Shown: positions 1,443 to 4,408 of the stretch, piece by piece | Position numbering within the stretch: the stretch's first letter is position 1 | Layout of the letters: the number at the start of each line of letters is the position of its first letter | Source: Octopus vulgaris | Lineage: Eukaryota | Reading direction: 5' to 3' | DNA length: 64,000 nucleotides | Assembly (NCBI GenBank): GCA_951406725.2 | Contig: OX597814.1 | Span: 162,626,001 to 162,690,000, forward strand | Program-made: the position numbers and the translations under genes | The notes under the pieces: generated by a model | What the model was told of the DNA's origin: nothing | What the model saw: the letters and a program-made list of their open reading frames with translations, nothing else | Databases searched by the model: none

Positions 1443-1450
1443 GGAAGCGA

Positions 1451-1528
1451 CACCTACTGGCTGGCTACGCTGCATTGAAAAGGGGCAATACCCCGAAACG
1501 CGTCTGTAGCTGCCGGTCAAGTAGTGTG
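1451..1528 (+). ncRNA. Type I hammerhead ribozyme (U3-A8 core variant), first copy of the array
   Basis: Stem I GCTGCA (1469-1474) pairs with TGTAGC (1505-1510). Core TTGAAAA 1475-1481; stem II GGGG-CAATA-CCCC; GAAA 1495-1498; palindromic stem III ACGCGT; GTC cleavage triplet ending at C1504. Extended stem I TGGCTGGC/GCCGGTCA. Confidence 0.85.
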
Positions 1529-2377
1529 GAGCGACTGACCTCCCTTGTTCGAAGGTTATATGGATACAGTTTGTGTATCAAATAGCTAACTTAAGGCGAT
1601 GGCCTCATGGAGCTAATAAGCGAACAGCTTTTTTCTTATTTTTATAAGAATGCCATATTAGTATGGCGATAACTATTAAAAGGGGCAATACTCCGAAACG
1701 CGTCTGTAGCTGCCGGTCAAGTAGTGTGGAGCGACTGACCTCCCTTGTTCGAAGGTTATATGGATACAGTTTGTGTATCAAATAGCTAACTTAAGGCGAT
1801 AGCCTCATGGAGCTAATAAGCGGACAGCTTTTTTCTTATTTTTATAAGAATGCCATATTAGTATGGCGATAACTATTATTTTCCGGGAACGCTGCCGCTG
1901 TTCTCTTTTAGAAGACTTAGTTATTTTAATATTTCTATTATTGAAAACAAGTGGATGTATTCCACCGAAACTAGGTAAATAAAACCATCGAACAGAGATT
2001 GTCGGAAGCGACATCTACTGGCTGGCTACGCTGCATTGAAAAAGAAGGGGGCAATACTCCGAAACGCGTCTGTAGCTGCCGGTCAAGTAGTGTGGAGCGA
2101 CTGACCTCCTTGTTCGAAGGTTATATGGATACAGTTTGTGTATCAAATAGCTAACTTAAGGCGATAGCCTCATGGAGCTAATAAGCGGACAGCTTTTTTC
2201 TTATTTTTATAAGAATGCCATATTAGTATGGCGATAACTATTATTTTCCGGGAACGCTGCCGCTGTTCTCTTTTAGAGAGACTTAGTTATTTTAATATTT
2301 CTATTATTGAAAACAAGTGGATGTATTCCACCGAAACTAGGTAAATAAAACCATCGAACAGAGATTGTCGGAAGCGA

Positions 2378-3905
2378 CACCTACTGGCTGGCTACGCTGC
2401 ATTGAAAAGGGGCAATACTCCGAAACGCGTCTGTAGCTGCCGGTCAAGTAGTGTGGAGCGACTGACCTCCCTTGTTCGAAGGTTATATGGATACAGTTTG
2501 TGTATCAAATAGCTAACTTAAGGCGATAGCCTCATGGAGCTAATAAGCGGACAGCTTTTTTCTTATTTTTATAAGAATGCCATATTAGTATGGCGATAAC
2601 TATTATTTTCCGGGAACGCTGCCGCTGTTCTCTTTTAGAGAGACTTAGTTATTTTAATATTTCTATTATTGAAAACAAGTGGATGTATTCCACCGAAACT
2701 AGGTAAATAAAACCATCGAACAGAGATTGTCGGAAGCGACACCTACTGGCTGGCTACGCTGCATTGAAAAGGGGCAATACTCCGAAACGCGTCTGTAGCT
2801 GCCGGTCAAGTAGTGTGGAGCGACTGACCTCCCTTGTTCGAAGGTTATATGGATACAGTTTGTGTATCAAATAGCTAACTTAAGGCGATAGCCTCATGGA
2901 GCTAATAAGCGGACAGCTTTTTCTTATTTTTTTATAAGAATGCCATATTAGTATGGCGATAACTATTATTTTCCGGGAACGCTGCCGCTGTTCTCTTTTA
3001 GAAGACTTAGTTATTTTAATATTTCTATTATTGAAAACAAGTGGATGTATTCCACCGAAACTAGGTAAATAAAACCATCGAACAGAGATTGTCGGAAGCG
3101 ACACCTACTGGCTGGCTACGCTGCATTGAAAAGGGGCAATACTCCGAAACGCGTCTGTAGCTGCCGGTCAAGTAGTGTGGAGCGACTGACCTCCCTTGTT
3201 CGAAAGGTTATATGGATACAGTTTGTTTATCAAATAGCTAACTTAAGGCGATAGCCTCATGGAGCTAATAAGCGGACAGCTTTTTTCTTATTTTTATAAG
3301 AATGCCATATTAGTATGGCGATAACTATTATTTTCCGGGAACGCTGCCGCTGTTCTCTTTTAGAGAGACTTAGTTATTTTAATATTTCTATTATTAGAAA
3401 ACAAGTGGATGTATTCCACCGAAACTAGGTAAATAAAACCATCGAACAGAGATTGTCGGAAGCGACACCTACTGGCTGGCTACGCTGCATTGAAAAGGGG
3501 CAATACTCCGAAACGCGTCTGTAGCTGCCGGTCAAGTAGTGTGGAGCGACTGACCTCCCTTGTTCGAAGGTTATATGGATACAGTTTGTGTATCAAATAG
3601 CTAACTTAAGGCGATAGCCTCATGGAGCTAATAAGCGGACAGCTTTTTCTTATTTTTATAAGAATGCCATATTAGTATGGCGATAACTATTATTTTCCGG
3701 GAACGCTGCCGCTGTTCTCTTTTAGAAGACTTAGTTATTTTAATATTTCTATTATTGAAAACAAGTGGATGTATTCCACCGAAACTAGGTAAATAAAACC
3801 ATCGAACAGAGATTGTCGGAAGCGACACCTACTGGCTGGCTACGCTGCATTGAAAAGGGGCAATACTCCGAAACGCGTCTGTAGCTGCCGGTCAAGTAGT
3901 GTGGA
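2378..3905 (+). ncRNA. Five further intact hammerhead copies (predicted cleavage after 2431, 2793, 3155, 3519, 3879)
   Basis: Each reads gctgcaTTGAAAAggggcaatactccGAAAcgcgTCtgtagc. Copies cleaving at 1704 (5'-truncated), 2070 and 4239 carry indels in the core or stem II. Confidence 0.8.
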
Positions 3906-4408
3906 GCGACTGACCTCCCTTGTTCGAAGGTTATATGGATACAGTTTGTGTATCAAATAGCTAACTTAAGGCGATAGCCTCATGGAGCTAATAAGCGGAC
4001 AGCTTTTTCTTATTTTTATAAGAATGCCATAGTATGGCGATAACTGTATTTTCCGGGAACGCTGCCGCTGTTCTCTTTTAGAAGACTTAGTTATTTTAAT
4101 ATTTCTATTATTGAAAACAAAGTGGATGTATTCCACCGAAACTAGGTAAATAAAACCATCGAACAGAGATTGTCATTAGCTGTCACCTACTGGCTGGCTA
4201 CGCTGCATTGAAAGGGGCAATACTTCTCCGAAACGCGTCTGTAGCTGCCGGTCGAAGTAGTGTGGAGCGAACTGACCTCCTTGTTCGAAGGTTGTATATG
4301 GATACAGTTTGTGTATCAAATAGCTAACTTAAGGCGATAGCCTCATGGAGCTAATAAGCGGACAGCTTTTTTCTTATAAGAATGCCATATTAGTATGGCG
4401 ATAACTAT

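Follow-up and report, generated by a model that had tools for sequence, protein, structure and literature searches.

A hammerhead retrozyme of Octopus vulgaris probably copied from a circular monomer by Penelope-type machinery

The retrozymes without long terminal repeats (non-LTR retrozymes) described in PMC7229834 consist of tandem units of 170-400 nt with a GC content below 50%, each holding one type I hammerhead; the monomer is strongly self-paired and has no open reading frame (ORF), LTR, primer-binding site or polypurine tract. Circular RNAs were shown there for coral, mussel and axolotl, and the Penelope-like elements (PLEs) that occur in the same genomes were proposed as likely mobilisers. 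For vertebrate retrozymes, a preprint (bioRxiv 10.64898/2026.07.22.740005) argues for a PLE origin from co-occurrence and from homology to pseudo-LTRs (pLTRs). PLEs are candidates for the enzyme that moves animal retrozymes (PMC7229834), and the preprint describes the mechanism as one that remains to be elucidated. Here we analyse an array of 362-nt repeat units in a 64,000-nt stretch of the Octopus vulgaris genome (contig OX597814.1, positions 162,626,001 to 162,690,000; hereafter the window), together with related copies in the whole genome (2.8 Gb, 227 contigs). The array is probably one insertion of a young retrozyme, reverse-transcribed from a single circular monomer by a Penelope-like reverse transcriptase (RT)-endonuclease at a (TA)n target and interrupted later by a long interspersed nuclear element (LINE).

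The octopus family shares the features listed for the described retrozymes, including the co-occurring PLEs. It differs from them in the U3-A8 core of its hammerhead and in that its insertion ends are mapped and carry, within (TA)n, the two-end tail signature of PLEs. RNA expression and circles were shown for the described retrozymes (PMC7229834), whereas the octopus family is known from genomic sequence alone. The conclusion on the PLE partner is the same as that of the vertebrate preprint; the octopus loci that were compared showed no pLTR homology, and the evidence here is instead insertion geometry and variant sharing, in an invertebrate. A literature search covering main texts of journals outside subscription found no paper that maps retrozyme insertion ends to a PLE tail or describes the octopus family, and the words 'ribozyme' and 'retrozyme' are absent from the main text of the octopus repeat annotation (PMC13282606). 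The class of element is already known; this family offers unusually clear genomic evidence on its mobiliser and template.

The repeat unit, its predicted hammerhead and the family

The original prediction was a nine-copy hammerhead array with GTC cleavage sites about 360 nt apart. All nine sites are present, with GAAACGCGTC ending at 1504, 1704, 2070, 2431, 2793, 3155, 3519, 3879 and 4239, and the spacings of 200, 366, 361, 362, 362, 364, 360 and 360 nt are as claimed; the minus strand of the window holds no GAAACGCGTC motif. Complete hammerheads number only six (1504, 2431, 2793, 3155, 3519 and 3879), five of them in consecutive units. At the 1704 site a 162-nt deletion took away the first part of the core together with the 5' strand of stem I, and the defects at the 2070 and 4239 sites may be sequencing errors, the array end there being indel-rich. 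Tandem Repeats Finder gives a period of 362, 7.6 copies and 97% matches. The start of the array at 1443 had to be revised, for the repeat resumes upstream of the window, beyond the far side of the LINE. There, in locus L070 (5450-6089), lie unit bases 40-362 and then 1-317, holding a tenth cleavage site, and both outer ends of the array adjoin (TA)n. Unit bases are numbered within the 362-nt repeat, the predicted cut closing the unit at base 362/1.

With its 3-8 pair, GAAA, NUH, three helices and open stem I, the motif is a predicted type I hammerhead ribozyme. Stem I is GCUGCA/UGUAGC, the core UUGAAAA and stem II 4 bp with the loop CAAUA, accompanied by GAAA and GUC; stem III is 2 bp, closed by a palindromic 2-nt loop. 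The core has U3-A8 in place of C3-G8 (UUGAAAA, not CUGANGA), and the Rfam hammerhead models gave no match in the window at the gathering score. U3-A8 cores can be active; a literature search for C3U together with G8A found no paper. The canonical metazoan type I layout and the U3-A8 variant are both described in PMC4209133, and the octopus unit matches both. Across 16 haplotypes, hand-picked from diverged subfamilies, 93.9% of cells pair and three pairs are changed on both sides; slid structures pair in 25-45%, and none of 500 shuffles, a control that ignores relatedness, reached the observed paired share. Core position 7 is variable (A/C/U) and loop 3 alternates between two palindromes. Metazoan hammerheads acting as dimers have such a free core position and palindromic loop 3 (PMC4209133).

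One unit folds with z = -5.9, none of 100 shuffles being as stable, and the circular fold of the monomer reaches -118.8 kcal/mol. Most of the hairpins listed in the original prediction reappear in the predicted fold (gatac/gtatc, aggc/gcct, ttcttat/ataagaa, gccata/tatggc and gtgga/tccac). Under the folding model, which does not allow loops of 2 nt, stem III is unable to form in a lone hammerhead. A second hammerhead per unit (UUGAAAA...GUGGA/UCCAC...GAAA CUAG GUA, bases ~239-280) was considered and rejected: its stem I is out of register, its stem III has an extra base, GAAA is altered in some subfamilies, and the distant family described below keeps the central block only. A promoter element fits that block better.

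A 23-mer from the core, in two alleles, has 1,163 and 154 exact matches in the genome (at least 1,317 exact core matches, carried by most large contigs), against none for the reversed controls, which excludes chance. A 30-mer at the long insertion end defined below has 2,808 matches. The best-scoring copies are 99-100% identical, which marks the family as young; there are also older subfamilies, at 80-90%. The 362-nt unit has a GC content of ~0.42, and the array holds no frame of at least 120 aa. The repeat is almost certainly a dispersed, non-coding, multicopy and young non-LTR retrozyme. The proposed assignment to metazoan non-LTR retrozymes with type I hammerheads is thus upheld, as unit size, GC content, consecutive hammerheads, non-coding dispersed copies and the self-paired monomer all fit.

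A second, distant retrozyme-like family occurs at loci L290, L302, L303, L306, L307, L309 and L311, with ~340-nt units and CUG..GA-type hammerhead cores. Its long end against (TA)n is likewise TAATATTTCTATTAT, some of its copies have inverted arms, and it carries a similar promoter-like block; it probably uses the same partner.

Insertion ends, the probable Penelope-type partner and the template

Insertion ends were mapped in 99 other loci, comprising 39 best-scoring loci, 40 consecutive loci on contig C1 and 20 picked by the long-end 30-mer; arm geometry was counted for the largest cluster in each fetched region. Two inverted arms, oriented tail-out, make up 69 of the 99 loci, and the other 30 are single arms (20 long, 8 short and 2 other). 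The outer ends lie at base ~175 (short end) or ~238 (long end), each directly after CTATTAT, and run into (TA)n, which flanks 66/69 left ends and 61/69 right ends. Sixty of the two-arm loci pair one short with one long end, one has two long ends and eight are unclassed; for the 61 classifiable inserts, such pairing has P = 2.7e-17 against an independent 50:50 choice. The 40 consecutive C1 loci alone gave split ends in 20/20, with 7 unclassed. Inner ends vary widely in position but are enriched at bases 35-50 (26 versus 7.9 expected), where the 5' end of the window's array also lies. Both arms exceed 362 nt in 16/60 inserts, and a unit junction is crossed by 42/60 short-end arms and 34/60 long-end arms. 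Most inner ends do not mirror each other between the two arms, which led us to reject an origin of the inverted arm by foldback (self-priming). The window's locus appears to have retained only one arm, of the base-175 type.

Partial tandems, an inverted and 5'-truncated arm, a tail at one end only and AT-rich or (TA)n targets are marks of GIY-YIG PLEs (PMC8557442, PMC3846280), and all recur here. GIY-YIG PLEs also carry hammerheads, including the U3-A8 variant (PMC4209133), as the retrozyme does. In PMC11167929 a purified PLE protein was shown to cut the two DNA strands and to extend each of them, with RT starting at two sites, one at either boundary of the tail. Unlike PLEs, the retrozyme has no ORF, its tail measures 63 nt rather than 30-40, and the whole element is the repeat unit; its CTATTAT ends blend into the (TA)n target, whereas the RT start of the anole PLE is not homologous to the cut DNA (PMC11167929). 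With ends of this kind the insertions look Penelope-made, and mobilisation of the retrozyme by Penelope-type machinery is very likely.

The octopus genome contains a young PLE with 781-aa RT plus GIY-YIG open frames, whose full-length copies are 95-99% identical. Its hammerheads are of the U3-A8 kind and its ends lie in (TA)n; in 3/3 two-arm loci a single arm bears the ~36-nt tail, and the long end of this family also reads CTATTAT. In sequence, the CTATTAT end and the U3-A8 core are what it shares with the retrozyme unit, no wider nucleotide homology having been found. The 781-aa frame has a C-X4-C-X2-C motif before the nuclease, as in Neptune/Nematis, and at L221-L224, L229 and L239 it is preceded by an upstream frame of up to 479 aa without a Pfam match. 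At another locus (L253) a Penelope ORF-start piece borders an older retrozyme copy at each of its two arms; the arrangement looks like an insertion of one element into the other.

Arms pass over the predicted cut site in ~200 of 208 cases, and the unit junctions at that site are exact in 204 of 205. The template was therefore usually continuous across the site, as a circle or as an uncut multimer; end-to-end template jumping between cut linear monomers is disfavoured by the same exact junctions. Sequence variants were analysed in segments of at least 90% identity, which kept 74 of the 99 loci, with 6 nt trimmed off truncated alignment ends. Where a variant seen in five or more loci occurs in an insertion, every copy there carries it in 105 of 115 cases. 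Most private variants are singletons (116), but 11 are fixed, some of these on both arms (5/5 copies at L052, 3/3 at L058). Base 350 is uniform in 52/53 multi-copy insertions, a fixed variant differs between arms in 1/53 two-arm loci, and no two loci share two singleton variants. In the window's array, the A97 allele is present in 10/11 copies, compared with 0/254 elsewhere. These patterns favour a one-unit bottleneck at each insertion, common to both arms, which is what a monomer circle gives in one step, and a single molecule with two priming sites explains the unlike ends. That a monomer circle is the usual template seems reasonably likely. Rolling-circle copying of a ~360-nt unit, as originally proposed, accords with the genomic pattern of exact junctions and variants fixed per insertion, at a length of ~362 nt.

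The LINE within the array and other features of the locus

The LINE is full-length (5,353 nt, starting at L070:6090), with an ORF1 of ~370 aa and an ORF2 with APE, RT and zf-RVT domains; the Pfam matches are zf-RVT in the window and APE and RVT_1 in the upstream part of ORF2. From the order of these Pfam domains and its target behaviour we take it to be of Tx1/L1 type. The order at the locus is (TA)n, unit bases 40-362, bases 1-317, the LINE and then bases 301-362 onward, with the 17 bp of bases 301-317 duplicated. In a search with the 3' untranslated region (3' UTR) of the LINE, 20 of 30 loci run into the same retrozyme 17-mer, as do all 19 copies with 3' ends at least 98% alike (the LINE's own copy counted in both figures), and the 5' end of full-length copies lies directly after unit base 317. 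In several subfamilies the host retrozyme alleles agree on both flanks of the LINE, which identifies the insertions as independent. The LINE is a site-specific parasite of the retrozyme and was inserted after the array had formed.

Target-specific LINEs of the Tx1 clade (Tx1L in Tx1D, Keno in U2; PMC4494074) are likewise APE-RT LINEs that insert at one set site within another repeat and make a long duplication. Unlike theirs, the octopus target is a retrozyme, namely the 5' strand of the hammerhead's extended stem I, and the clade is assigned here by domains rather than by a tree. A diverged relative of the LINE ends at the first base of a U1 gene (L098/L120; G000:C18:49051795), and another (L281) ends at a U2 gene. 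At L103 and L104 (G000:C2:73.04-73.07 Mb) at least five LINE 3' ends lie head-to-tail inside a retrozyme insertion, several of them joined via the regenerated 17-bp target. Within the window, 4732-6360 holds a broken relative, ~82% alike over one aligned stretch, with a low-quality (CT)n interruption and no retrozyme after it. We rejected the idea that the LINE generally carries the hammerhead along by 3' transduction: in the other LINE loci the alleles on either flank agree with the host array, and the C allele is simply the common one.

The features are collected in Table 1. Both ends that bound the tail of the reference unit read CTATTAT. The unit at 1505-1704 has the genome-majority haplotype C350/G97, its 162-nt deletion beginning at the short end site, whereas the remaining array on both sides of the LINE is T350/A97; the odd unit could be a piece carried in with the LINE, a product of gene conversion or an assembly mosaic. 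Elsewhere in the window (62030-62480), two 185-nt tandem copies with a tRNA-like head, recognised by eye from A-box- and B-box-like motifs, are probably a short interspersed nuclear element (SINE).

Table 1. Coordinates of the retrozyme array and its neighbours within the window
Feature	Position	Strand	Remarks
LINE 3' part	1..1442	+	ORF2 ends at 1205, followed by 3' UTR without poly(A); zf-RVT match
LINE target-site duplication, 17 bp	1443..1459	+	Unit bases 301-317; partner copy just 5' of LINE start, in L070
Retrozyme array, downstream part	1443..4410	+	362-nt units; short tail-less end, unit base ~175, against (TA)n
Hammerhead 1, complete	1469..1510	+	Predicted cut after 1504
Elements of hammerhead 1	1469..1510	+	Stem I 6 bp, core UUGAAAA, stem II 4 bp, stem III 2 bp, palindromic 2-nt loop
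Deleted unit, 200 nt	1505..1704	+	Site 1704 is the 3' half of a hammerhead only
Hammerhead 3	2030..2076	+	Site 2070; 5-nt insertion after core (damage or read error)
Hammerhead 4, complete	2396..2437	+	Predicted cut after 2431
Reference 362-nt monomer	2432..2793	+	Between two complete hammerheads; predicted unit-length RNA
63-nt 'tail' of reference unit	2607..2669	+	From short end, base 175 (window 2606), to long end, base 238 (2669)
Conserved block resembling the proximal sequence element of small nuclear RNA (snRNA) genes	2678..2693	+	54 nt 5' of unit base 301; candidate internal promoter
Hammerhead 5, complete	2758..2799	+	Predicted cut after 2793
Hammerhead 6, complete	3120..3161	+	Predicted cut after 3155
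Hammerhead 7, complete	3484..3525	+	Predicted cut after 3519
Hammerhead 8, complete	3844..3885	+	Predicted cut after 3879
Hammerhead 9	4202..4245	+	Site 4239; one core A missing, 3 extra bases in stem-loop II (damage or read error)
(TA)n microsatellite, insertion target	4406..4731	.	Another (TA)n run flanks the 5' end of the array, in L070

Alternative readings, proposed mechanism and significance

The original prediction suggested that the RT of the adjacent LINE copies the repeat. The two are in direct contact at the locus, and the LINE is young, with long open frames, and two thirds of its sampled 3' ends (20/30) enter the repeat. This contact is accounted for by the LINE's choice of target, with the 17-bp duplication and the matching host alleles on both sides in several subfamilies; because the LINE lies inside the array between duplications and has a fixed target, its adjacency is no evidence of a mobiliser. 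The ends of retrozyme inserts, at the internal bases 175 and 238 and within (TA)n, are away from the LINE target, and the flanks of the 99 loci are mostly (TA)n. Nor does the retrozyme share a 3' tail with the LINE, as would be expected of a SINE-type client; its ends are internal CTATTAT sites of Penelope type. The LINE also came later than the array, and its role as mobiliser, already largely refuted, is extremely improbable. Growth of arrays at the DNA level, in which single units or short pieces are retrotransposed and then expand as a minisatellite by slippage, unequal exchange or gene conversion, is put forward in the discussion of bioRxiv 10.64898/2026.07.22.740005 and would suit the few variants confined to subsets of units. 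Both inverted arms are, however, often multi-unit and frequently cross a junction, such growth would need a tandem seed first, and private variants common to both arms are unlike a one-arm expansion, which makes this reading improbable as well.

A closer competitor retains the Penelope-type machinery but takes as template, in place of the circle, a long linear multimer that is transcribed from homogeneous source arrays and stays uncleaved; the hammerhead would then be dispensable for transposition. Exact junctions are equally expected from an uncut multimer, the anole PLE prefers unprocessed RNA in vitro (PMC11167929), and the lone hammerhead, as folded above, lacks its stem III. What the multimer leaves unexplained, for want of a one-unit bottleneck, is the fixation of a private variant in about ten units (A97) and the private variants on both inverted arms at L052 and L058; no pair of loci shares a pattern of singleton variants. 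A multimer would also offer many copies of each priming site, yet like ends occur in 1/61 inserts, and the hammerhead has been kept, with compensatory changes, across subfamilies 80-99% alike. We consider the multimer unlikely.

Several observations nevertheless weigh against copying from a monomer circle by a Penelope-type partner. The cut site is the end point of 8 arms where 2.5 would be expected (P = 0.004), so some templates may be cut linear RNA. At L102 (2264-4223) one arm starts in the retrozyme, crosses an intact cut site and continues into 700 nt of LINE 3' end. This arm lacks variants that are fixed in its partner, in keeping with the use of two RNAs and a linear chimeric template that was uncut; a capture of LINE sequence by Penelope-type copying is possible there. 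Variants found in 2/10 units (L069) and 2/6 units (L040), and a 1-nt deletion in 4/8 units of the window's array, suggest some DNA-level duplication or read error. Of nine Xenopus retrozyme dimers, one was cleaved in vitro (bioRxiv 10.64898/2026.07.22.740005), the main substrate of the anole PLE was uncleaved RNA, and hammerhead mutants did not block its insertion (PMC11167929). A dimeric protein with two binding modes could give unlike ends without a circle. Among GIY-YIG candidates, of which 148 of 6,136 were listed, 30 + 20 loci showed no autonomous PLE with nucleotide homology to the unit; the 20 + 30 loci picked by the long end have no PLE ORF upstream, and these searches did not find the exact partner.

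For transcription of the unit we slightly favour a candidate internal promoter of snRNA type, predicted from the unit's bases. The U1, U2 and U5 genes of the genome share an element at -54 to -57; scored against the unit, it has its second-best of 724 positions at -54 from base 301. Bases 241-260 are fully conserved in ~20 diverged segments, and the distant second family keeps a similar block. Taken by itself the score is not significant (137/300 shuffles reach it). Newt satellite 2 has an snRNA-type promoter and provides a parallel. Neither a literature search nor PMC2837043 confirmed that parallel. At least half of the family's sequence words occur in 20 of 24 sequencing runs, no run being on record as RNA; two of four runs guessed to be RNA gave a single 392-nt contig (362 + 30) at depth 7-9, which tandem DNA would also give and which therefore speaks neither for nor against expression.

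The favoured mechanism, a Penelope-type partner copying a monomer circle, would run as follows. The snRNA-type promoter inside each unit would start transcripts near base 301, and read-through would pass two hammerheads. The predicted cut of these ribozymes follows GUC. With a stem III that is a 2-bp palindrome they would probably act as dimers, and the 362-nt monomers set free would be circularised by a host ligase, on the analogy of PMC7229834. A Penelope-type protein would then cut both (TA)n strands, and, as the insertion ends suggest, a single RNA would be primed twice, by one DNA end at base ~175 and by the second at ~238. Each RT would circle the template for up to ~10 turns. Head-to-head joining of the two cDNAs would leave inverted arms in tail-out orientation, just one of which bears the tail. 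At this locus, the Tx1/L1-type LINE then inserted at bases 301-317 of one unit.

We tentatively entertain, with somewhat less confidence than its parts, a fuller reading in which the arrays are direct footprints of rolling-circle retrotransposition, with an RT-endonuclease dimer on one hammerhead-made 362-nt circle that offers two priming sites 63 nt apart and bears an snRNA-type promoter, the LINE targeting its transcription start. The family yields base-precise predictions: RT should start at bases ~175 and ~238, the target should be (TA)n, and a 362-nt circle should give multi-turn cDNA. With a candidate intact PLE protein in the same genome, the question suits the in vitro PLE assay already published. 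A compact handle on the PLE mechanism would also come from a small circle able to recruit an RT-endonuclease in trans. If the fuller reading is true, the tandem units, inverted arms and one-sided tail of Penelope-type insertions would be explained at once, and the circle would carry its own snRNA-type promoter, itself parasitised by a LINE aimed at its transcription start.

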